This document shows positions 22,301 through 47,049 of a stretch of 52,660 nucleotides of DNA, one piece after another; positions within the stretch are counted from its first letter, which is position 1, and the number at the start of each line of letters is the position of its first letter. Source of the DNA: a virus (lineage: Duplodnaviria > Caudoviricetes); the IMG/VR virus record IMGVR_UViG_3300005537_000007, positions 1 to 52,660 of that record. One strand, written 5' to 3'. The translations under genes were made by a program, and so were the position numbers. The notes under the pieces were generated by a model that saw only the letters and a program-made list of their open reading frames with translations, did not search any database and was not told the origin of the DNA.

Positions 22301-22519
22301 ATGAGCGATATAGACGAGAAATCCGTTATGTTAGGCCAACATGAAGCGCGATTGGATAGCGTTGAGGCCACACTCAACGAAATCCGCGGTGATGTAAAGC
22401 GGCTCGTTGAGTACATGGACCGCGCCAAGGGTTCGTGGAAAACGTTGGTCGCTATCGGCGGTATCACCACGGCGGTAGTTGAAGGCGTTCACCAACTTGT
22501 CGGATGGTTGCACAAATGA
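22301..22519 (+). CDS. Putative holin/antiholin (coiled coil plus C-terminal TM)
   Basis: 72 aa with a coiled coil then a hydrophobic tail, ATGA-coupled to the endolysin gene. Confidence 0.55.
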   Translation: MSDIDEKSVMLGQHEARLDSVEATLNEIRGDVKRLVEYMDRAKGSWKTLVAIGGITTAVVEGVHQLVGWLHK

Positions 22520-23043
22520 CGCGAGACGAAGCTGTAGCGTTGATGATCCGCCTGGAGGGCGGCGAGGCGAACGTTAAAGGCGATCCGGGCGGGCACACCA
22601 AGTACGGTATCACGCAAGCCACGTTGGATTCGTACCGCAAAAACGCACCACTACTTGGGCTGCCCACCAACGTGGCGAATTTGACCACTACACAAGCGGC
22701 GGTTATTTACATCGATGTTGATTGGGATGCTATGCAGTGCGACGAACTGCCCGCACCACTCGCCGCGTTGATGCTCAATTCTGCGGTGAATCAAGGCGAG
22801 CCCACCGCCGTAGGGCTACTGCAAGAATGTCTGGGATTGCGTGTTGACCGTTTGATGGGGCCCGCTACGTTGGCTGAGGTCGCCACGTGGAAGTCTAAGT
22901 ACATGCCTGAACAGACTCTTGCGGAAGAGTTTGCCGCGCGCGTAGCAGTTCGTTACGCCTCGCTCAACCGCACCGAGTGGCAATTCGAGTTAGGTTGGAT
23001 GCGGCGGTTGTTCCGCATCTATACCCTCGCCATCTCCGGATAG
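22516..23043 (+). CDS. Endolysin, glycoside hydrolase family 108 with C-terminal peptidoglycan-binding motif
   Basis: Motifs EGG, DPGGxTKYGIT, AVNQG and FxxGWxRR. Confidence 0.9.
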   Translation: MTRDEAVALMIRLEGGEANVKGDPGGHTKYGITQATLDSYRKNAPLLGLPTNVANLTTTQAAVIYIDVDWDAMQCDELPAPLAALMLNSAVNQGEPTAVGLLQECLGLRVDRLMGPATLAEVATWKSKYMPEQTLAEEFAARVAVRYASLNRTEWQFELGWMRRLFRIYTLAISG

Positions 23044-23232
23044 TTGGTCAGCGCGTCGCTTTATGTATCGGCGGCACAATGCCAGTGCGTGAGGAACGGT
23101 CGGATTCTTGGTTCGGGTCGTGTCTATAACTGCTAACGTAACGGGATCGCGAACAAAGAAGTAGTGTTCAGTCCTGCCCAAATGTATTCGATGTTTTGTT
23201 GCGAATTGAGCGACAGTTTTTGGAATATTCAT
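22990..23232 (-). CDS. Hypothetical protein in an antisense cassette within the lysis module
   Basis: 80-aa ORF downstream of 23266..23439 and its promoter. Its 3' end overlaps the endolysin gene. Confidence 0.45.
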   Translation of the reverse strand: MNIPKTVAQFATKHRIHLGRTEHYFFVRDPVTLAVIDTTRTKNPTVPHALALCRRYIKRRADQLSGDGEGIDAEQPPHPT

Positions 23233-23265
23233 TTCCGTTGCACCGTAGATTGGTTGTACGGTTAA

Positions 23266-23439
23266 TTATCGATCCCTGGTATCTACCGGCGCATCTACCA
23301 CCATTTCTTTGACGTATGCTCGAAACCGTTGGATCTGCGATACAGCTTCCTCAGCCTTCTCGGAAGTTGAGCAAACTGCAGCGATCTTGTCAGTACCGGT
23401 TAGGCTGTTGACTTCTCGAAATACAAGATAGACCTTCAT
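23266..23439 (-). CDS. Small 57-aa protein (MKVYLVF...IAAVCSTxEKAEEA, DUF7336-like); first gene after an operator-containing promoter
   Basis: Read manually (below the ORF-track cutoff). AGGA RBS. Pattern is common in small phage proteins. Confidence 0.6.
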   Translation of the reverse strand: MKVYLVFREVNSLTGTDKIAAVCSTSEKAEEAVSQIQRFRAYVKEMVVDAPVDTRDR

Positions 23440-23469
23440 TCTGGGTTCCTGGTTGTCCGATGTGCAAGC

Positions 23470-23513
23470 ATCTTACTGACCGAGCCGTCAGTTTGCAAGT
23501 GATGCGCGTCACA
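23470..23513 (-). promoter_or_regulatory. Leftward sigma70 promoter TTGCAA-17-TAAGAT with TGAC-N6-GTCA operator in the spacer and a CRP-like AGTGA-N6-TCACA box abutting -35
   Basis: -35 at 23493-23498, -10 at 23470-23475, palindrome at 23477-23490. Near-identical to 45280-45323. Confidence 0.75.
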
Positions 23514-23553
23514 GTTTATACTTCGGTCGATTTTCCATAATCTGGGCGAAACC

Positions 23554-30747: not shown

Positions 30748-31839
30748 TCACGCCACCCCTTCGACTGGCAGACCGGCAATCAGCGAATCGAAGTCGCGGT
30801 CGATTGTCGGAATGAGGTGCGTATACTCGGGGTTGCCCAACGCCATAAGATTCGGCGCGCCGTGCTTCTGCACCACGGGCGATACCAACCGCGGATCGAG
30901 CTGTTTGTCCCGCGTGGCAGCAGTCAACTTGTTCATCAGTTGACGATACTCGTCAGCTGCTACGGACACCCCAGGAGCAGCCCCAGCGGCGGCATCGACG
31001 ACGGCCGATCCAACCTGTGCGGGTCCGGGTACAACACCCGGCATTGCGTAGGCTGGTGGCGGTGGAGGCACCATTGTAGCGGCGGGGACTGGCGGGACAG
31101 GAGGCAGTGGCACGGAACCATTAAAGCCGAGGGGGCTTGGGGGAAGTTGCACCTGTGGCGGCGGTGGGTTCCACGTGACGATTGCCGGCTCGGCCGGCCG
31201 AGGCGTCACGCCCATAGCGGCAACTCCCGCAGATACCCCAGCGTGCGGGGCAACGCGGCGCGCGCTCAACTCTTGAATCACCTGTTGCGCGACGGTTGGA
31301 TCGAGCCCCTTGATGAGCTTCCACGTGCCGTCTTGCTTTTTCGAGTGCTTCTTATTGTGGATACGGCCATCCCACGGCAGACCAGAAGAATCGTACTCAA
31401 CTGGTCCAGCCGCCGCGATTGTCGTCACAGGCGAGGCATTGTTCGGGGCTGCCGTAGGCACCGGGGGCACAAACACCGGGGGAACGGATGATGTGGTAAT
31501 GGCAGTGCTTGTTACGGTGCTTGATTGCGGGGCATTTGCAACAGAGTTGACAGGCCCAGCAGGCGGCGCAACAGGCAATGGAGGTATGGGTTGCGCAGTA
31601 GGGGCAGAAATGGGGCTCGTATTGTACGGGGCGCTCGGAGCGGGCGGCGCCGGAGGAAAAGGTACTACGTTGCTGCGCGCGGCGCTGGGCGCTGGCTGCG
31701 TCACAGTTCCCGCGGGAGCTGCCGGGGCATCCCCCGAAACCTCGAGTTGCGGGATATCACCGGCCAGCATCAAGATTGCGGCGGCGGCGGCACGGTACTG
31801 CGCGGGGCCATCGTGGGCAGAGTCGATTTCAATTCGCAT
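30748..31839 (-). CDS. Pro/Ala-rich replication-module protein with DxxGLPWDxRIH...DGTWK domain
   Basis: First gene of the leftward replication operon. Conserved core within low-complexity linkers. Confidence 0.65.
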   Translation of the reverse strand: MRIEIDSAHDGPAQYRAAAAAILMLAGDIPQLEVSGDAPAAPAGTVTQPAPSAARSNVVPFPPAPPAPSAPYNTSPISAPTAQPIPPLPVAPPAGPVNSVANAPQSSTVTSTAITTSSVPPVFVPPVPTAAPNNASPVTTIAAAGPVEYDSSGLPWDGRIHNKKHSKKQDGTWKLIKGLDPTVAQQVIQELSARRVAPHAGVSAGVAAMGVTPRPAEPAIVTWNPPPPQVQLPPSPLGFNGSVPLPPVPPVPAATMVPPPPPAYAMPGVVPGPAQVGSAVVDAAAGAAPGVSVAADEYRQLMNKLTAATRDKQLDPRLVSPVVQKHGAPNLMALGNPEYTHLIPTIDRDFDSLIAGLPVEGVA

Positions 31840-31880
31840 GGGTTTCCTCGAATAAAATTTTTGGGTTGCAGGCGGAGCGC

Positions 31881-31909
31881 ATCGTATGCTTAACTGACGC
31901 CCTCGTCAA
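31881..31909 (-). promoter_or_regulatory. Leftward sigma70 promoter TTGACG-17-TACGAT overlapped by TGAC-N6-GTCA (31895-31908)
   Basis: Located in the divergent intergenic region between the two replication arms. Confidence 0.7.
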
Positions 31910-31920
31910 CTGGAGTGCAC

Positions 31921-32106
31921 ATGGCCGCAAAAATACACATCAGTTCGTTTATCCTCTGCACCGGCCGTAAATGGCAGCGGGGCTCAATGCGGTTCAGTAC
32001 GTATGCGGATAACATCACATGCCGAAATTGCCAGCGCTACATTATGCGTAGTTATATGTTAACTACTCGCGAGAAAAATCGCTTGCGTAAAAAATGGGGG
32101 ATGTAG
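31921..32106 (+). CDS. Small Zn-finger-like protein (H...C...TCxxC)
   Basis: GGAG RBS. Abuts the helicase start. Confidence 0.45.
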   Translation: MAAKIHISSFILCTGRKWQRGSMRFSTYADNITCRNCQRYIMRSYMLTTREKNRLRKKWGM

Positions 32107-33807
32107 TTGACTCTCCGCGACTTCCAAATCGAGATGCGCGACGCAATCTATCAGCGTTGGCAGGAACCGAACGTATTTAACGTAATGGGTGTGCTGCCCA
32201 CGGGGGGTGGGAAGACTGTCCTTTTCTCAAGCATCGTGCGAGACTTCGGGACGCCCGCATGCATCATCGCGCACCGCCTGGAACTGGTCGCGCAAGCCTC
32301 GCTCGCGTTGAACCGCGAAGGAATCCCGCATGACCTTATCGCCCCCAAAGATGTCAAACACGCCATCACGAAAGTACATCACGACAATCACGGTAGCAGT
32401 TTTTATCGTAGCGGTAGCCCTATTCGCGTTGCTGGTGTTGATACCCTGGCGAATCTTGATGGCCATGATCGTTGGATGTCACAAGTTGGTATCGTGGTGC
32501 CGGATGAAGGTCATCACATTTTACGTGCAAATAAATGGGGCAAACAAGTACTACGGTTCCCCAACGCGCGTGGATTTTTTCCTACGGCTCACGCTTTACG
32601 CGCTGACGGGCGTGGCTTGGGGCGCGGCGCTGACGGGCTGGCGGATAGCTTGGTTATGGGGCCAAGCCCTAGGCATCTCATTGAACGTGGTTATCTTACT
32701 GACTATCGTTTGTTTTGCCCATCTTCTGATGTTGATTTCAGTAACGTACCTATTGGTTCTTCAGGTGAGTACAGTGCCCCGCAGCTACGAGCCGCCACGC
32801 ATGCGTCCAATAGCATCGTCGGCGACATTGTCAAACAGTACCTCAAACACGCGGCGGGAAAGTTAGGTGTCACGTTTGCAGTTGACGTTGAGGCGGCCAA
32901 ACAACTTGCGCAAGCGTACCGGGCGGCGGGAGTGCCGGCGGAAGTCATTACGGCGGATACGCCAATCGCCGTGCGCTCCCAACTCATGCAACAATTCCGG
33001 TCCCGTGTTTTGCTTCAGCTCGTATCCGTGGACTGCCTTGGTGAGGGTACAGACGTGCCTGCAATCGAGGTTGTCAGTATGGGGCGTAAAACAGCATCTT
33101 TCCAGCTGTTCGCGCAACAATTTGGCCGAGCGCTCAGAGTTATGGTCTCGGATGAGCACGCATCTGCGTGGAATACTTACACGGATGCCCAACGCCGCGC
33201 AGCTATTGCTGCGTCAACGAAACCTAAAGCCATAGTGATAGATCATGTTGGAAACACAATTTTTCACGGATTGCCAGACGTCCCTAGATCGTATTCGCTT
33301 GAACGTGCGGAGACACGAACGCGCGCAAAGACGGGTGTTGAGGCTCTTAAAGCATGCCCCGAATGCACTCGGCCCTATGAACGTTTCCACGCTCATTGCC
33401 CTTACTGCGGCTACGAATGTCCACCGCGAAACCGAAGCTCTCCAGAACAAGTTGAAGGAGACATTATCGAACTGGACGCAGCAATCCTTGCAAGTCTCCG
33501 AGGAGATATCGCGGCAGTTGATGGCCCTTCAGATGCGCGCGGGACGGATCTCGTAGGTAACAGCATCCGCAAACAGCATAAGGACCGGCAACAGGCGCAG
33601 TTCACACTTCGCAAGGCAATGGAACTTTGGGGTGGTTGGCGCATCCACGTGGGAGAGACTATCCGTGATGCGAATCGTAGATTTTGGTACGCGTTTGGTG
33701 TAGATGTACTGACCGCCCAGACACTTGGGGTGCGTGATGCTGCGGAGCTTGAGGCGCGTATTCGCACTGAGTTACAGCAACATAACGTGGAGGCACAACT
33801 TGTATGA
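32107..33807 (+). CDS. Superfamily 2 (DEAD/DEAH-like) helicase with C-terminal Zn finger
   Basis: Q motif LRDFQ, Walker A PTGGGKT, DEGHH, EGTDVP, QQFGRALR, DHVGN and CPEC...CPYCG. Confidence 0.9.
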   Translation: MTLRDFQIEMRDAIYQRWQEPNVFNVMGVLPTGGGKTVLFSSIVRDFGTPACIIAHRLELVAQASLALNREGIPHDLIAPKDVKHAITKVHHDNHGSSFYRSGSPIRVAGVDTLANLDGHDRWMSQVGIVVPDEGHHILRANKWGKQVLRFPNARGFFPTAHALRADGRGLGRGADGLADSLVMGPSPRHLIERGYLTDYRLFCPSSDVDFSNVPIGSSGEYSAPQLRAATHASNSIVGDIVKQYLKHAAGKLGVTFAVDVEAAKQLAQAYRAAGVPAEVITADTPIAVRSQLMQQFRSRVLLQLVSVDCLGEGTDVPAIEVVSMGRKTASFQLFAQQFGRALRVMVSDEHASAWNTYTDAQRRAAIAASTKPKAIVIDHVGNTIFHGLPDVPRSYSLERAETRTRAKTGVEALKACPECTRPYERFHAHCPYCGYECPPRNRSSPEQVEGDIIELDAAILASLRGDIAAVDGPSDARGTDLVGNSIRKQHKDRQQAQFTLRKAMELWGGWRIHVGETIRDANRRFWYAFGVDVLTAQTLGVRDAAELEARIRTELQQHNVEAQLV

Positions 33808-39950: not shown

Positions 39951-40142
39951 TCACACTCCACGTCGTTCTAACTCCGCCTTAAGTAAAGCTGCCGCCGTCC
40001 CCAGGTTACAGTTGAGTGCTTCCATGAGTTCCTTGCACGCCCAACCGAACGCAGCGGCCGACTCAGGCCCCGGCAACGCGGCCACGGTGACGTAGGTCGT
40101 TACCGCGTGACTGAGCGCCACCTGAACGAACCCGGCGTTCAC
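39951..40142 (-). CDS. Hypothetical early protein
   Basis: GTGA-coupled to the upstream gene. Confidence 0.45.
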   Translation of the reverse strand: MNAGFVQVALSHAVTTYVTVAALPGPESAAAFGWACKELMEALNCNLGTAAALLKAELERRGV

Positions 40143-40867
40143 GGCCCACCCCCGGTATGCGGCGCCACACCCGCCATCGCCGGTCGATTCAGCAGCACGC
40201 GGCCCACTCGGGTGCGCGCGGGGCCTCGATCAGGCGGCCGGGCTCGCGCGGTGGTCTCGGCGGGTTCTCCCTCGTCGCCCAGGCCATCCAGCAGGGCCTG
40301 TAGATCCTCCAGGATCGCCTCCAGCAATTCTCGAGCTGCGGCTGGATCCACACGCGCCTGCCGCTCTATCGCCCGCTGTAGGCCCTCAGAATTGCGCTGG
40401 ATCTGCCGCGCCACCCGGTCGGTTGGCTCCTGGGGCTGTCCGGCGCGCCGCAGGGAGTCTTTCGTCGCAGTCTCGGGGTCCACGGTGCGCAGGTCGCCGC
40501 CGGCCCTCACGTAGCCCACGAGGGTCGCCTTCGCCGTGCGGGCGAACCCGCTACGACTGTTCCGTGCCAGCATCCGGCGGCGCCGCTCGTCGCGCGGTAG
40601 CTCGAGATCATCGGCGATATCCTCCGTGACCACTCCACGCAGCACTGCGGCGTACAACGGCGCCTCGATCCGCTCGAGCGCCGCCAGCTGTGTTTCCGCG
40701 CTCATGGGTCGTCCACGCCCACGTGGGGTTCCAAGCTGTGCTTGCACCGCTACCAGCAACACGCGCAAGTAAGTGAGCCCACCACCTTGCGAGGCTACAA
40801 CGTGGGAAGTGTGATCACGGGCCAATTGCTCCACCTGGGCCTCGGTCATGACGTACTTGGATTTCAT
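40139..40867 (-). CDS. Hypothetical Arg-rich helical protein (242 aa)
   Basis: Long ORF starting MKSKYVM. Flanked upstream by TGAC-N6-GTCA sites at 40889 and 40993. Confidence 0.65.
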   Translation of the reverse strand: MKSKYVMTEAQVEQLARDHTSHVVASQGGGLTYLRVLLVAVQAQLGTPRGRGRPMSAETQLAALERIEAPLYAAVLRGVVTEDIADDLELPRDERRRRMLARNSRSGFARTAKATLVGYVRAGGDLRTVDPETATKDSLRRAGQPQEPTDRVARQIQRNSEGLQRAIERQARVDPAAARELLEAILEDLQALLDGLGDEGEPAETTARARPPDRGPARTRVGRVLLNRPAMAGVAPHTGGGP

Positions 40868-41048
40868 GTTCAGTACTCTCAACAACACTGACGGATGTGT
40901 CAGCACACTGAGATATGCAGGAGGCGTGCCAGCGCGTTGCGTAGCAATACACACACTTAACTTGCTACAGCTGTAGCGTTGCGCTGCAATACTGACCGAC
41001 TCGTCAGTAAATGCTACATAACACTACAACCGTATTATCGTTGAACAT

Positions 41049-42765: not shown

Positions 42766-42809
42766 AGAATACTGACGGGGCGGTCAGTCGTCAAGTGAAA
42801 TACATCACA
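42766..42809 (-). promoter_or_regulatory. Leftward sigma70 promoter TTGACG-17-TATTCT with TGAC-N6-GTCA operator in the spacer and a CRP-like AGTGA-N6-TCACA box
   Basis: Same geometry as the promoters at 23470 and 45280. Confidence 0.75.
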
Positions 42810-43197: not shown

Positions 43198-43415
43198 ATT
43201 GGCTATTACCTATTAATTAAGAACGCCACTATCCTCGCAGCTATTCATTCTTGCGTCAATAATTCGACGACGCCCACCCCCTGCTTCTCTCTATATTATT
43301 AAACCCTATTACTTATTTTTACTCTTCTACATTCTATATATATCTCACATAATACCTTTTAATAATTGCGTTAAAGGGTAGGGGACATACCCGTGACGGT
43401 ACGGTCAGTCATTCT

Positions 43416-43442
43416 TGCAAGATGCAAGATGCAAGATGCAAG
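43416..43442. repeat. Tandem heptamer (TGCAAGA)x3 plus TGCAAG in the AT-rich divergent region
   Basis: Read directly. Adjacent to TGACGGTACGGTCA at 43394-43407. Confidence 0.85.
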
Positions 43443-43567
43443 CTCGTGGTGATCGCGTTACATAAGTGTGGACTTATATGAAAACTGACGACACTTAAGC
43501 GATTGCTTGACTAATAAGCGTAGGCTTATACATTGATTTTTAACCGCAAACCTACATACTTTTACGC

Positions 43568-44485
43568 ATGAACCAAATTGCGACAGTTCCCGCGGGCACC
43601 CCCGTGGAGGTAGTTGAAAAGTCGCGCGCGATGGTGCGCGTGGAAGCGGCGCGCAAAGCGTGCAACGCGGCCGAAGCTTCGTTCGCTGAACACTGGGCCG
43701 CAACATCCAACAAGGCTAAAGCGTACCGATTGGCCATGGGCTACGACGGTACAAAGAAAGGCGCGAAGGCGTGGGGGCCAGCGTTTCAGTATCAACGTGC
43801 GATTGAGTATTCCTACAAGCCAGCAGTGCAAGAGTATTTCCAGGCGTTGAAGGATCTTGCGTGCGAGAACGCGGTGATCAACATTCAACGCATCCTGGAA
43901 CATGACAAGGCAATTGTGCAGGCGGCGGAAACATCCAACGATCTATCACGCCACGTGTGGCTCAATTGCCGCTACTGCCACGGTGCCAACAACGCGTATC
44001 AGTGGATTGATGATGCGGAGTATCGGCAAGCCATGGCGAAATGGTTTGAACAGGTCGGCGCGTTGAAGGGGGATCAACCCGCGCCCGCGCAACCGGACGA
44101 CTCGGGCGGCTATGGTTTCGAACAGTGGGCCAAGCCCAACGCCGATTGCCGCCGCTGCCTGGGGCTCGGCGAGCAGCGCACGCTTATCGCGGACACGACC
44201 GAGCTGGAGGGACCGGCCGCTGCGCTCTACAAGGGCGTGAAAGCCAAAGCGGACGGCTCAATCGAGTTGATTACGCACGATGTGGACAAAGCCAAGGAGC
44301 GACTGCTGAAGGCCGCAGGCGCGTATGGTGACTCGGCTAGCGACGTGGCCCGCGGCGCGGCGGCGGGGGCTGCTGCGGGGGCGGCGGCTGCTGGGGCGGC
44401 TCAGGTAGCAGCCCGTACAGCGACTGTCGCAGTGACGCTTTCGGATGAGGAAGCGGCGCGGATGTATTTGGAGCTGGCGGGTTAG
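43568..44485 (+). CDS. terS: Terminase small subunit (Zn-finger type)
   Basis: Motifs AYRxAxG, CRYCHG...YQW, PNxDCxxCxGxG, DT..L...AxxLYxGVK and C-terminal EAxRxY. Upstream of terL. Confidence 0.75.
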   Translation: MNQIATVPAGTPVEVVEKSRAMVRVEAARKACNAAEASFAEHWAATSNKAKAYRLAMGYDGTKKGAKAWGPAFQYQRAIEYSYKPAVQEYFQALKDLACENAVINIQRILEHDKAIVQAAETSNDLSRHVWLNCRYCHGANNAYQWIDDAEYRQAMAKWFEQVGALKGDQPAPAQPDDSGGYGFEQWAKPNADCRRCLGLGEQRTLIADTTELEGPAAALYKGVKAKADGSIELITHDVDKAKERLLKAAGAYGDSASDVARGAAAGAAAGAAAAGAAQVAARTATVAVTLSDEEAARMYLELAG

Positions 44486-44756
44486 CTATTGCCCGCGCTG
44501 TTGCGTCGATGCGTGCTTGATTAGTTAAAAACCACTCCACTAATGGGTCCACTAATGGGCTGAGTGGCGATTCAATCAATCGCCGAATGTGATCAATCCC
44601 AGCGCGCATGCCCGCGTATTCAGGATCGGGCGGCTTGACTCTCACTACAGATGCGAGCGCGAATACCCGGCGCTCCGCAGGCCACTCGCCCGTTCGTAAC
44701 AACCGATCTAACTCGCGTTTGCTGAGATTGCGGCGCATGGGGCGCATTGCTTTCAT
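44337..44756 (-). CDS. Hypothetical protein, last gene of the acr cassette (3' end overlaps terS)
   Basis: ATGA-coupled start at 44756. Confidence 0.4.
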   Translation of the reverse strand: MKAMRPMRRNLSKRELDRLLRTGEWPAERRVFALASVVRVKPPDPEYAGMRAGIDHIRRLIESPLSPLVDPLVEWFLTNQARIDATARAIANPPAPNTSAPLPHPKASLRQSLYGLLPEPPQQPPPPQQPPPPRRGPRR

Positions 44757-44860
44757 GAGCGTTCCTGCCACCACGCGAGCGCGGCGATAGCCAGGACGCT
44801 GATCACCGTGCCGCACACCGAGCCGATGATCACAAGCACCACTGTATGTGTTTCGCACAT
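44753..44860 (-). CDS. 35-aa single-TM peptide
   Basis: Read manually: MCETHTVVLVIIGSVCGTVISVLAIAALAWWQERS. Coupled on both sides. Confidence 0.45.
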   Translation of the reverse strand: MCETHTVVLVIIGSVCGTVISVLAIAALAWWQERS

Positions 44861-45039
44861 CATTCGACACCTTTGGGTAAATGCTTACGGTACTCTTCCA
44901 GCAGATCGTTCTGCGTGGAGTTGAACTGCGCCTCCAATCGCTCCACCTTGGCGCGTTGGGCCGCGAGCCGTTCCTTGTGCACGGCGAGCTGGTAGGCCAG
45001 TACGGCCAGCTCGCGGCGTAATTCTTCAAAGCGTGTCAT
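44860..45039 (-). CDS. Small coiled-coil protein
   Basis: Start overlaps the acr stop. Heptad pattern visible. Confidence 0.55.
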   Translation of the reverse strand: MTRFEELRRELAVLAYQLAVHKERLAAQRAKVERLEAQFNSTQNDLLEEYRKHLPKGVE

Positions 45040-45251
45040 CACATCACCTTGAACACTTCGCCGAATTTGGCCGCGTGGGCCATAGTGTAGGCGTCTATGA
45101 ATTGTTGATTGGTGCAAGGCGAGACGATGGTGCTGTAGATGTGTTCGCGCAGCTCGTCGTCCATCAAATTTACCGCAGCATCGAAATCCACCAACCGACC
45201 GTTGATAGGGGCGCCAACGTACACCTTGCCATCTCCGAAAGAATCATTCAT
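45039..45251 (-). CDS. acrIC5: Anti-CRISPR protein, AcrIC5-like (70 aa)
   Basis: NGRLVDFDAAVNLMDDELRE...QQFIDAYxxAHAAKFGEVF matches my recollection of AcrIC5 (NGxxIDFDAAVNLMDxELRE...QEFLDAY..AHAAKF). Acidic, GGAG RBS, first gene after a strong promoter. Confidence 0.8.
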   Translation of the reverse strand: MNDSFGDGKVYVGAPINGRLVDFDAAVNLMDDELREHIYSTIVSPCTNQQFIDAYTMAHAAKFGEVFKVM

Positions 45252-45279
45252 TTGCGTATCTCCGTAACCAGTGATGCGA

Positions 45280-45323
45280 ACTATACTGACCGTCGCGTCA
45301 GTTTGCAAGTGATGCGCGTCACG
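45280..45323 (-). promoter_or_regulatory. acr promoter TTGCAA-17-TATAGT with TGAC-N6-GTCA operator in the spacer and a CRP-like box
   Basis: -35 at 45303-45308, -10 at 45280-45285, palindrome at 45287-45300. Confidence 0.78.
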
Positions 45324-45342
45324 CTTTACACTGCGGCCGATT

Positions 45343-47049
45343 ATGGTAAATTCCAACGCGGAGCTGAGTGACCGGGGGCTCGTGGCTAACTCAGCAGCTG
45401 CATGCGAGCCCCAATTCGACTGGCGTCACCCGCACTATGCGCCTATTTGGGCCAAGCGCATGCGCATGCTGGCCAAGCTGCGCGATCCCAAGACCGGCCC
45501 GCAATACTTCCAAGCGATGATGCAGTTTTATCGTGCGGGCAACATCGACCGCATGATCGAGGACTGGGGCGTGACGGTCGATCCGCGCAATGCGGGCACT
45601 GGCAAGCCCATTATGATGCCGTTCATCTTGTTTCCACGGCAGCGTGAGTTTACCCAATGGCTGTGGGGTAAGTTCAAACAACAAGAAGATGGCCTCGAGG
45701 TCAAATCGCGTGATTGCGGCGCATCGTGGCTCGCCATGGCGTTTTCCATGTGCATGTGTCGCCTATTCAACGATGTTAGCTTCGGCTTTGGTTCGCGTAA
45801 AGAGGATCTTGTTGACCGTTCGGGCGATCCCGATTGCTTGTTCTGGAAAGGCCGCACATTCGTTAAATATCTGCCGCGTGAGATACGTGGCCCATGGGAC
45901 TGGAAGCGTAACAATGCACACAAACGTACATGGTTTGATGACACAAACAGTTCTGCCACCGGTGAGGCAGGGGATGACATTGGCCGAGGCGGCCGTAAAA
46001 CTATGTATTTTGTCGATGAATTTGCGTTCGTCGAACGACCCAAGCTCGTGGATGCAGCACTGTCAGCCAACACGCGATGTCGTATTGAGATGTCTTCAGT
46101 TAATGGGCTCAACAACACGTTCGCCGAGCGCGCCCGTGGCGGAAAGATAGATCGATTCGACTTCGACTATCACGACGATCCGCGCAAGTGTTACGTTGAT
46201 GCGAATGGCATCAAGGTGCCCTACCCTGATTTCGCCAAGTATCTCGCCTCGCTCGACCCCGTGGTTAAGGCCGCGGAGTATGACCGCGACTTCAAGGCAT
46301 CTATCGAAGGCGTGCTTATCCCACAGGAATGGGTAGAGGCGGCCATCGGTGCGGCGGCGAAGCTGGGTATTAAAGTTAGCGGCGTGCGTCGGGTCGCGTG
46401 GGATATTGCTGATGCCGGCAAGGATAAAAATACCAACATATTCCGCCATGGTATCCAGGTTGAGGATGCCGAAGAGTGGCAAGGTCAGGAAGCGCGCATG
46501 ATGGATTCTGTGCGGCGCACTGTTGAGTTTGTTGATAAGCATCAAGCGAGTGAGTTGTACTACGATAAGGATGGCATGGGCGCGCCGGCATCGTCCATGC
46601 TAGCCATGGAACTGGAAGAACGCCGAAAGCGCAACGCGAAGTATCGATTGAGCGTTACGGGTTTCCGTGGCAGCGGTGCGGTAATAGATCCGGAGCGCAA
46701 AACTCCGGGCACGGACCGCAAGAATGAGGATTACCTCGAGAATCAAAAGGCGCAAAGCTGGATGGCCCTCCGTTGGCGGTTTTGGATTACATATAACGCT
46801 TTGACCGTTCCCGGCTATACGTATGATCCGAATGAAATTATCTCGTTAAATCCACAGATGAAGTTGCTCACCAAGCTCACGGGTGAATTGTCGCAACCCA
46901 CCCGCACGTGGAGCAAGACGGGCAAGCTCATGATCGATAAGACGCCCGACGACGTTGCCTCTCCCAACCTTGCGGATGGCGTGATGATGGAATTTGCATA
47001 CCAGCGGCCCGCTATGGTATTCAGTGACGAACTGTTGGGGGCACTATGA
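45343..47049 (+). CDS. terL: Terminase large subunit
   Basis: Motifs PFILFPRQ, Walker A-like KSRDxGASW, GRGGR, Walker B YFVDE, SSVNG, nuclease WDIADxGxD, YDxDGxG and SPNLAD. Confidence 0.92.
   Translation: MVNSNAELSDRGLVANSAAACEPQFDWRHPHYAPIWAKRMRMLAKLRDPKTGPQYFQAMMQFYRAGNIDRMIEDWGVTVDPRNAGTGKPIMMPFILFPRQREFTQWLWGKFKQQEDGLEVKSRDCGASWLAMAFSMCMCRLFNDVSFGFGSRKEDLVDRSGDPDCLFWKGRTFVKYLPREIRGPWDWKRNNAHKRTWFDDTNSSATGEAGDDIGRGGRKTMYFVDEFAFVERPKLVDAALSANTRCRIEMSSVNGLNNTFAERARGGKIDRFDFDYHDDPRKCYVDANGIKVPYPDFAKYLASLDPVVKAAEYDRDFKASIEGVLIPQEWVEAAIGAAAKLGIKVSGVRRVAWDIADAGKDKNTNIFRHGIQVEDAEEWQGQEARMMDSVRRTVEFVDKHQASELYYDKDGMGAPASSMLAMELEERRKRNAKYRLSVTGFRGSGAVIDPERKTPGTDRKNEDYLENQKAQSWMALRWRFWITYNALTVPGYTYDPNEIISLNPQMKLLTKLTGELSQPTRTWSKTGKLMIDKTPDDVASPNLADGVMMEFAYQRPAMVFSDELLGAL

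Follow-up and report, generated by a model that had tools for sequence, protein, structure and literature searches.

How does a phage govern an anti-CRISPR gene that has no repressor gene of its own beside it and that is read head-on into the packaging genes? The question is raised by a locus in the IMG/VR virus record IMGVR_UViG_3300005537_000007 (Duplodnaviria; Caudoviricetes). The whole record, 52,660 bp, was analysed and is called the window here; it is complete and has direct terminal repeats, the first 100 bases being the same as the last 100. Between the genes for the small and large terminase subunits, terS and terL, the minus strand carries a short cassette headed by a gene, acr, whose product belongs to the AcrIC5 family, known for inhibitors of type I-C CRISPR systems. 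The reading that we favour, and consider likely, joins three parts: an anti-CRISPR (Acr) protein active on the type I-C Cascade complex, an accessory cassette inserted in antisense, and a promoter whose palindrome is regulated in trans. It starts from direct observations on the family membership and fold of the protein, the insertion, the duplication of the promoter, and the recurrence and conservation of the palindromic motif.

The first step is the identity of the gene, here also called open reading frame 1 (ORF1):

45251..45039, minus strand, including the stop codon 45041..45039: acr gene, AcrIC5 family, 70 aa from the ATG at 45251 or 61 aa from the GTG at 45224.

The original prediction, made from the sequence without database searches, had described an acidic 70-aa ORF at this position and had named it AcrIC5-like, proposing profile alignment and structure prediction against AcrIC5 as a check. 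The description is borne out (isoelectric point 4.56, net charge -5) and so is the name, as both kinds of comparison returned a significant match and the same fold. ORF1 scores 65.4 bits against the Pfam family PF22147 'AcrIC5' (cut-off 27; E 5.2e-18) and covers positions 3-53 of the 53-position profile, and a six-frame search of the genome with this profile recovers the gene at 64.9 bits (E 4e-19). Among 177,635 distinct PDB sequences, phmmer finds a sole match at E <= 10, namely AcrIC5 itself (7yhr_A, E 7.3e-14), with residues 15-69 of ORF1 aligned to residues 5-59 of the known structure. An AlphaFold2 model computed with 22 aligned family members is of moderate confidence (mean predicted local distance difference test score, pLDDT, 72; predicted template-modelling score, pTM, 0.56) and consists, as does 7yhr, of a beta-hairpin and three helices (E13-16, E19-22, H23-29, H32-41, H48-63). 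Foldseek superposes model and structure with template-modelling scores of 0.71/0.83, a root-mean-square deviation of 1.3 A, and a sequence identity of 55% across 56 columns; 7yhr alone among 77 matches to the model reaches E <= 0.001. The core motif AVNLMDDE-[IL]-RE together with F51, Y55, and H59 is invariant in 22 of 22 aligned AcrIC5 members including ORF1, as are a K and a G of the C-terminal helix. A search of 5.8 billion proteins yielded 24 matches to ORF1, every one of which contains PF22147; the nearest matches other than ORF1 itself are 64–66% identical, and one of these (66%) is a hypothetical protein of Rugamonas sp. (Burkholderiales). The PDB match, the Pfam score, the predicted fold, the invariant motif, and the presence of PF22147 in all 24 matches thus establish that ORF1 is a member of the AcrIC5 family.

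Spurious ORFs are frequent in high-GC genomes, and several overlap the acr region, so it could be argued that ORF1 is a chance open frame whose similarity to AcrIC5 is a compositional artefact. This explanation is refuted by the E values of 5e-18 (Pfam), 7e-14 (PDB), and 4e-19 (six-frame), as well as by the fold match, the coding-type composition (GC by codon position 0.54/0.33/0.67), and a Shine-Dalgarno (SD)-like site upstream of the gene; its probability is practically nil. The exact ORF1 sequence also occurs in a public protein collection. As to where the gene begins, ATG 45251 and GTG 45224 are both preceded by CGGAGAT and a further 6 nt, and the GTG would give a product of 61 aa, the usual length in the family.

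What the protein may do can be gauged from its tested relatives. In the account of PMC7913775, the P. aeruginosa gene for AcrIC5 was found beside aca1, and its product makes plaquing possible again on a type I-C strain; it relieves CRISPR-based gene repression (CRISPRi), i.e. it blocks DNA binding by Cascade, and it likewise inhibits the type I-C system of Eggerthella lenta, whose Cas proteins are 35–55% identical. The same source reports orthologues, commonly in phages, from Proteobacteria, Firmicutes, and Actinobacteria (PMC7913775). A distant homologue from a Bifidobacterium prophage is described as active, with an RNA anti-CRISPR directly downstream (PMC10651486), and an AlphaFold 3 model in a preprint puts AcrIC5 on the site of Cas8c that binds the protospacer-adjacent motif (PAM) (bioRxiv preprint 10.1101/2025.06.06.658234). 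By homology with these tested AcrIC5 proteins, inhibition of type I-C systems with Cas8c as the target is most likely the role of ORF1 as well: the protein would bind type I-C Cascade, its probable contact being Cas8c in the neighbourhood of the PAM-recognition site, and Cascade would thereby be kept off target DNA, letting the phage escape CRISPR interference. When a natural Cas8c of 589 aa (L057) was modelled in complex with the acr protein (alignment A1), the score fell short of the mark, and the result counts neither way.

The second step concerns the position of the gene. The cassette and its flanks are laid out as follows:

43568..44485, plus strand: probable terS, left flank (PHROG 51, E 1.9e-5; Pfam Terminase_2 at 15.3 bits, below the cut-off).
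45343..47049, plus strand: terL, right flank (PHROG 2, E 1.5e-12), with an alternative in-frame GTG start at 45382.
45039..44860, minus strand, including the stop codon (coding to 44863): ORF2, 59 aa, a heptad-repeat coiled coil of no family.
44863..44753, minus strand, including the stop codon (coding to 44756): ORF3, 36 aa, a peptide with a single hydrophobic, transmembrane-like segment.
44756..44337, minus strand, including the stop codon (coding to 44340): ORF4, 139 aa, a doubtful gene.

The product of terL is 46% identical to the annotated TerL of Burkholderia phage Magia and matched 952 phage records; that of terS is 41% identical, C-terminal end included, to the product of the gene directly before terL in two other loci (L048/L049). 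The viral and metagenome contigs searched contain three lineages only with this terL, the relatives standing at 88% and 51% TerL identity. The 51% relatives are two contigs, 96.8% identical to each other, in which a 128-aa minus-strand gene is followed by terS and terL, with a gap of ~200 nt between the latter two and with a TerS that shares its C-terminal motif with that of the window. None of ORF1-4 finds a match in six relative loci, and PF22147 is found in neither of the two relatives' records by the same search that detects the acr of the window. Since the 51% relatives keep terS and terL without ORF1-4 and without PF22147, the ~860 bp between the two genes are an accessory insertion of the window phage, and its antisense placement, which splits terS (a probable call) from terL, agrees with what had been described at the outset. 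The acr would then be the first gene of an accessory minus-strand cassette, probably transcribed from a sigma-70-type promoter in the direction opposite to the late packaging genes. The whole cassette locus gave zero megablast matches against 50,697 phage records.

Two further observations concern the same junction. In the 88% relative (L047/L050), three tail-fibre-like genes (656, 383, and 256 aa) stand directly before terL in place of terS, a mosaic rearrangement at the very site that holds the cassette in the window. On the terL side, a promoter-like sequence TTTACA-16-TAAATT with an extended -10 TG (45325-45352, plus strand) is arranged back-to-back with that of acr and takes in the terL ATG at 45343; the in-frame GTG at 45382, with GGGGG before it, could be the real start of terL, in which case terL would have its own promoter downstream of the insertion.

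The third step, and the one feature of the locus that goes beyond routine annotation, is a recurrent promoter-operator, of which the acr copy and the sites related to it are these:

45284..45342, minus strand: acr promoter module, made up of an upstream box GTGACGCGCATC, the -35, the palindrome, and the start of the -10.
45308..45303, minus strand: -35 hexamer TTGCAA (promoter scan).
45302..45285, minus strand: palindrome ACTGAC-N6-GTCAGT, filling the 17-nt spacer.
45285..45280, minus strand: -10 hexamer TATAGT (promoter scan).
4108, 7642, 23475, 31893, 33708, 39458, 40887, 40991, 42771, 43392, and 45285: the eleven palindrome copies with <=2 mismatches.
42771..42788, minus strand: perfect palindrome copy arranged as TTGACG / palindrome / TATTCT, heading small minus-strand ORFs.
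40991..41008, minus strand: perfect palindrome copy with weaker hexamers, upstream of the minus-strand ORF 40954..40139.
22990..23532, minus strand: sister promoter (23532..23474) and its antisense mini-cassette.
23439..23266, minus strand: DUF7336 ORF of the sister cassette, 57 aa (Pfam 26.9 bits, cut-off 25).
23232..22990, minus strand: orphan ORF of the sister cassette, 80 aa.

The acr promoter module stops one base short of the terL ATG. Its hexamers, TTGCAA-17-TATAGT, match 9 of 12 consensus positions and are sigma-70-like; the promoter site that had been noted before acr is present, but to call it near-consensus is slightly generous. Promoter-like sites number 4 in the region 43300-45700, as against 1.4 +/- 1.2 in shuffled sequence. 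The palindrome recurs well beyond this region. With <=2 mismatches allowed, the window holds 11 sites, 4 of them perfect, where 1.27 +/- 1.17 are expected and 0 of 100 shuffles reach 11; seven of the 11 fall in gaps between long ORFs, and the stretch 31839-32107, a divergent region, and the sequence before terS (43392) have copies as well. At 45285, 23475, and 42771, the perfect sites of the minus strand are built alike: the palindrome follows immediately on a -35-like hexamer, and the -10 (TATAGT, TAAGAT, and TATTCT, respectively) begins at the last base of the palindrome. In the intergenic stretch upstream of terS, three tandem copies of the heptamer GCAAGAT (43410-43439) adjoin the palindrome at 43392.

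The closest likeness is between the acr promoter (45342..45284) and its sister copy (23532..23474), which are identical at 51 of 59 nt in an ungapped alignment; the local score is 43, compared with 10.0 +/- 1.4 and a maximum of 16 for 194 random pairs. The sister copy heads a mini-cassette that is itself wedged in antisense, with a GH108 endolysin gene (22504..23043) on one side and the next gene of the plus strand on the other. The motif is likewise kept in the relatives: a complete genome of 52.8 kb has 5 perfect sites, and 3 perfect palindromes and a further one with a single mismatch lie on a 29.9-kb fragment from the 88% relative; a reversed pattern, used as control, gives 0 in both. In the 51% relative, the flanks of the palindrome show the same architecture, with the upstream GTGACGCGCATC box and with TATAAT or TATACT as -10 boxes. 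Elsewhere the exact palindrome has 0 sites in 58 other loci (404,000 bases), and the composite promoter pattern is found in the viral contig collection solely in two contigs of the 51% relatives.

Conserved arms and a variable centre, set between a -35 and a -10, resemble the operator of a dimeric repressor. Whichever factor reads the palindrome, it is not encoded in the cassette, since relatives that lack both ORF2-4 and acr carry the motif. We read these sequences to mean that a promoter-operator common to the lineage, and probably early, has been co-opted by the acr cassette and would be controlled in trans; early expression, and repression by way of the palindrome, are what we infer. A dimeric regulator, phage-wide or from the host, would probably silence acr together with other leftward cassettes of small genes through the spacer palindrome, and could take over, in trans, the part played in classical acr-aca operons by a dedicated Aca repressor. 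Such control would matter because the cassette fires head-on into terS, against the terS-to-terL direction.

If regulation comes from outside the cassette, what is to be made of the missing aca gene, which the original prediction had noted and called atypical? In the classical operons, an Aca dimer binds an inverted repeat in the promoter and stops constitutive transcription that would be harmful (PMC8633003). Pfam finds no helix-turn-helix (HTH) family in ORF2-4, so that the first half of the statement holds; the second does not, as HTH neighbours are scarce among homologous loci and the lineage-wide, operator-like palindrome offers a route to regulation in trans. In a survey of 20 hand-picked neighbours or forms of AcrIC5 homologues, which was not exhaustive, loci L006 and L013 have 64-66-aa proteins coupled directly after acr with HTH matches of E ~1e-5, below the Pfam cut-offs, and L029:1236-1622 (identical in L033:725-1111) encodes a 129-aa fusion of an N-terminal HTH_3 domain (40 bits) with AcrIC5 (85 bits). 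The remaining surveyed neighbours and forms have no HTH, which leaves a total of 2 small HTH proteins and 1 fusion. Given so few HTH proteins among the 20, absence of aca is not rare in the AcrIC5 family.

ORF2 holds the very slot of the 64-66-aa HTH proteins of L006 and L013, coupled directly after acr, and its heptad pattern suggests dimerisation; with a palindrome in the cassette promoter, one might take it for a non-HTH analogue of Aca, a dimeric coiled-coil autoregulator of the promoter from which it is transcribed. It matches no DNA-binding family, however, and the palindrome is kept in relatives that have no ORF2 homologue, so that ORF2 is not the reader unless it is an add-on. The Aca families named in PMC8633003 are, moreover, all HTH proteins. 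We rate this role for ORF2 as very unlikely, and a regulator acting in trans on the lineage-wide operator is still preferred.

Searches for homologues also brought to light several unusual forms of AcrIC5. Protein P0016 (111 aa) joins an AcrF31 domain (PF25703, 68 bits) and an AcrIC5 domain (79 bits) in one chain, and P0010 and P0017 (110-111 aa) are AcrIC5 proteins with N-terminal extensions that match no family. In an Acetobacteraceae metagenome-assembled genome (MAG), L053:2434-3165 carries an AcrIC5 domain (61% identity) at the C-terminal end of an open frame of up to 243 aa, which may be another fused form or an over-long ORF. Two Microviridae/gokushovirus genomes of ~5 kb, MG945373.1 and KT264799.1, contain an unannotated AcrIC5-like coding sequence (46–53% identity), a striking location in that these are single-stranded DNA phages with little spare coding room.

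Several observations weigh against an AcrIC5-type inhibitor under operator control in trans. At the promoter, the hexamers are a mere consensus match (9 of 12), and 4.4% of 29-nt windows (464/10,527) contain a perfect inverted repeat of 6 bp; the palindrome at the acr promoter means little by itself for this reason, and the argument rests on its recurrence. As regards a regulator, no match to PF01381 (HTH_3), the HTH family that was searched genome-wide, was found in the whole phage at E <= 0.1. On the side of the protein, in the model of the 70-aa form the N-terminal 10 residues come out as disordered, and which start codon is the true one is ambiguous; the Pfam score of 65 bits lies below those of the four other members scanned (65.5–90.6 bits); and ORF1 is the least acidic of 28 distinct members, with a net charge of -5 against -6 to -15 and an Asp+Glu fraction of 14% against 18–28% in the others. 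AcrIC5 has been described as a small, acidic monomer (PMC10478522), and as highly acidic both there and in the preprint (bioRxiv 10.1101/2025.06.06.658234); its acidic surface has been proposed to mimic DNA or to block a site of DNA binding.

The lowest net negative charge and the lowest acidic fraction among the 28 members are what a drifted protein would show, i.e. one that keeps the AcrIC5 fold and acts on another CRISPR subtype or a DNA-binding defence, or is a weak or inactive inhibitor of type I-C systems. Several positions that are mostly Asp or Glu in the family are His, Asn, Gln, or Val in ORF1 (alignment A1), and subtype specificity can vary within one acr family, as exemplified by the AcrIC7 variants (PMC7913775). 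Yet ORF1 keeps all of the family-invariant residues, is 55% identical to a tested AcrIC5, and with its isoelectric point of 4.56 is still acidic. AcrIC5 also tolerates divergence, in that systems with Cas proteins only 35–55% identical are inhibited (PMC7913775) and the Bifidobacterium homologue is active (PMC10651486). Drift away from type I-C inhibition is unlikely in our estimation, and activity on type I-C Cascade is retained as the preferred reading. A divergent and weakly acidic homologue of this kind could show which acidic residues the AcrIC5 family needs in order to block type I-C Cascade.

What, then, are the ORFs that follow acr? The three minus-strand ORFs with overlapping starts had been described as a coiled coil, a transmembrane peptide, and a protein of ~140 aa, and they are present as such, with start/stop overlaps of TGATG (acr/ORF2), ATGA (ORF2/ORF3), and ATGA (ORF3/ORF4). 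GC by codon position 1/2/3 is 0.71/0.32/0.71 in ORF2 and 0.56/0.44/0.78 in ORF3, with 0.59/0.49/0.67 in 17 long phage genes; both have SD-like sequence upstream and appear with the same exact ends among the gene calls of a public collection, and the heptad pattern of ORF2 is clean. ORF2 and ORF3 look coding, and ORF4 is doubtful as a gene, because it runs antisense into the conserved 3' end of terS. Its final ~149 nt are antisense to that end, where the C-terminus of TerS is conserved in a relative, and its Pro/Gln-rich tail faces an Ala/Gly-rich stretch of TerS. The non-overlapping part of ORF4 has an ambiguous composition (0.62/0.49/0.57), and its exact sequence is missing from the gene-call collection but is among those of the ESM Atlas; both its model there (pTM 0.19) and the one from AlphaFold2 (pLDDT 55, pTM 0.27) are poor. 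An exhaustive HMMER search with ORF4 returned 3 marginal matches among 1.84 billion representatives, and a viral DNA-pattern scan found no viral relative. ORF4 contains a perfect 12-nt tandem duplication at 44536-44559 (Pro-Leu-Val-Asp / Pro-Leu-Val-Glu); a hairpin and T-run that a terminator scan reported within ORF4 is this duplication and is probably no terminator.

It had further been proposed that the ORFs co-transcribed with acr are candidate anti-defence genes. Clustering of anti-defence genes is common. ORF2-4 are translationally coupled to a bona fide acr in a cassette that is accessory and absent from the relatives, and for ORF2 and ORF3 there are in addition the coding-type composition and the gene calls. 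Only their position speaks for such a function, however, as none of the three has a family, fold, or relative in any search: ORF2-4 match no Pfam or PHROG family, and ORF2 found itself alone among 5.8 billion proteins, no relative in viral contigs, and a best ESM Atlas score of 0.86, under the 0.9 lead level. A word-index search likewise gave nothing of use on the function of ORF2 and ORF4. In 45 other viral AcrIC5 loci, ORF2-4 stand beside acr in 0 cases, and ORF4 lies over the conserved terS end. As a group, ORF2-4 are doubtful candidates for further anti-defence genes. An RNA anti-CRISPR (Racr) in the cassette was also considered and is rejected. A scan of 43300-45500 with Rfam gave no CRISPR-DR family, three natural type I-C repeats compared with the window gave no match with <10 mismatches in 31-32 nt, which leaves no repeat-like sequence, and the RNA fold does not stand out (z -0.90).

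The near identity of the two promoter copies suggests shuffling by recombination, and it is tempting to speculate that promoter-led mobile modules capture small counter-defence genes and insert in antisense between essential late genes, with one lineage-wide regulator timing them all. We hold this as a tentative possibility with the odds against it. If true, ORF2, ORF3, and the DUF7336 product would rank as novel anti-defence proteins, and the control of acr would be aca-free.

The phage itself encodes a DNA polymerase, a Gp2.5-like single-stranded DNA-binding protein, an exonuclease, a helicase, and a primase, and a profile search with PF00589 found no tyrosine integrase; with replication genes of its own and no tyrosine integrase found, it is probably virulent. 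As to the host, which according to the original prediction would carry a type I-C CRISPR system, the terL search of representative genomes gave 39 pattern matches of which 0 were confirmed, with no prophage relative, and the nearest cultured TerL is just 46% identical. Among representative genomes, the exact AcrIC5 core motif occurs in MAGs of Acetobacteraceae (61% identity), Lachnospiraceae (53%), and Spirochaetales (41%); the Rugamonas and Acetobacteraceae homologues are hints at most to the host. The type I-C marker Cas_Csd1 was found in 0 of these 3 homologue-carrying MAGs, which are incomplete genomes, and in 4 of 11 genomes of the Acetobacteraceae MAG's family, neither figure bearing on the host of the window phage. 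Three I-C arrays, all from a single bacterial family, supplied 190 spacers for comparison with the phage, and the best match was 14 nt, which is chance level.

For AcrIC5 as such, the basic picture is unchanged, as it is already a curated Pfam family spread over several phyla. The wiring is of more interest, in that an acr without a private aca uses a copy of a promoter-operator that several leftward cassettes share. Should the palindrome be read by a phage-wide regulator, guilt-by-association searches that start from aca would miss acr loci of this kind, and the other cassettes under the same promoter would form a short list of candidate counter-defence genes.

How does the locus compare with known systems? 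It is like the Pseudomonas AcrIC5 (7yhr) in sequence family, predicted fold, small size, acidity, and phage carriage. It differs from it in an N-terminus that may be longer (70 aa as opposed to ~60, unless translation starts at the GTG), in having no adjacent aca1, through which the P. aeruginosa gene is reported to have been found, and in its place, antisense in the terS-terL interval of a phage that is probably virulent. With the Bifidobacterium AcrIC5-RacrIC1 locus it shares, as far as that locus is described in PMC10651486, an AcrIC5 homologue at the head of a short operon with a second element downstream. Unlike that locus, the window cassette has no solitary CRISPR repeat in the searches made. 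The 'PeSL' elements of T4-type phages are promoter-led mobile cassettes of small genes, and here, too, a repeated palindrome promoter heads small accessory ORFs at several positions; the window belongs to another phage group and has another sequence, and its mobility would follow from two copies and one presence/absence comparison. The most instructive comparison is with the acr-aca operons, such as acrIF1-aca1 of JBD30 and acrIF8-aca2 of ZF40, whose classical layout is also seen in the AcrIC5 homologue loci L006 and L013. As in those operons, the acr of the window stands behind a strong-looking promoter with an inverted repeat. In contrast to them, its cassette has no HTH gene, and the repeat is a multi-copy, lineage-wide motif that is present in acr-less relatives as well.

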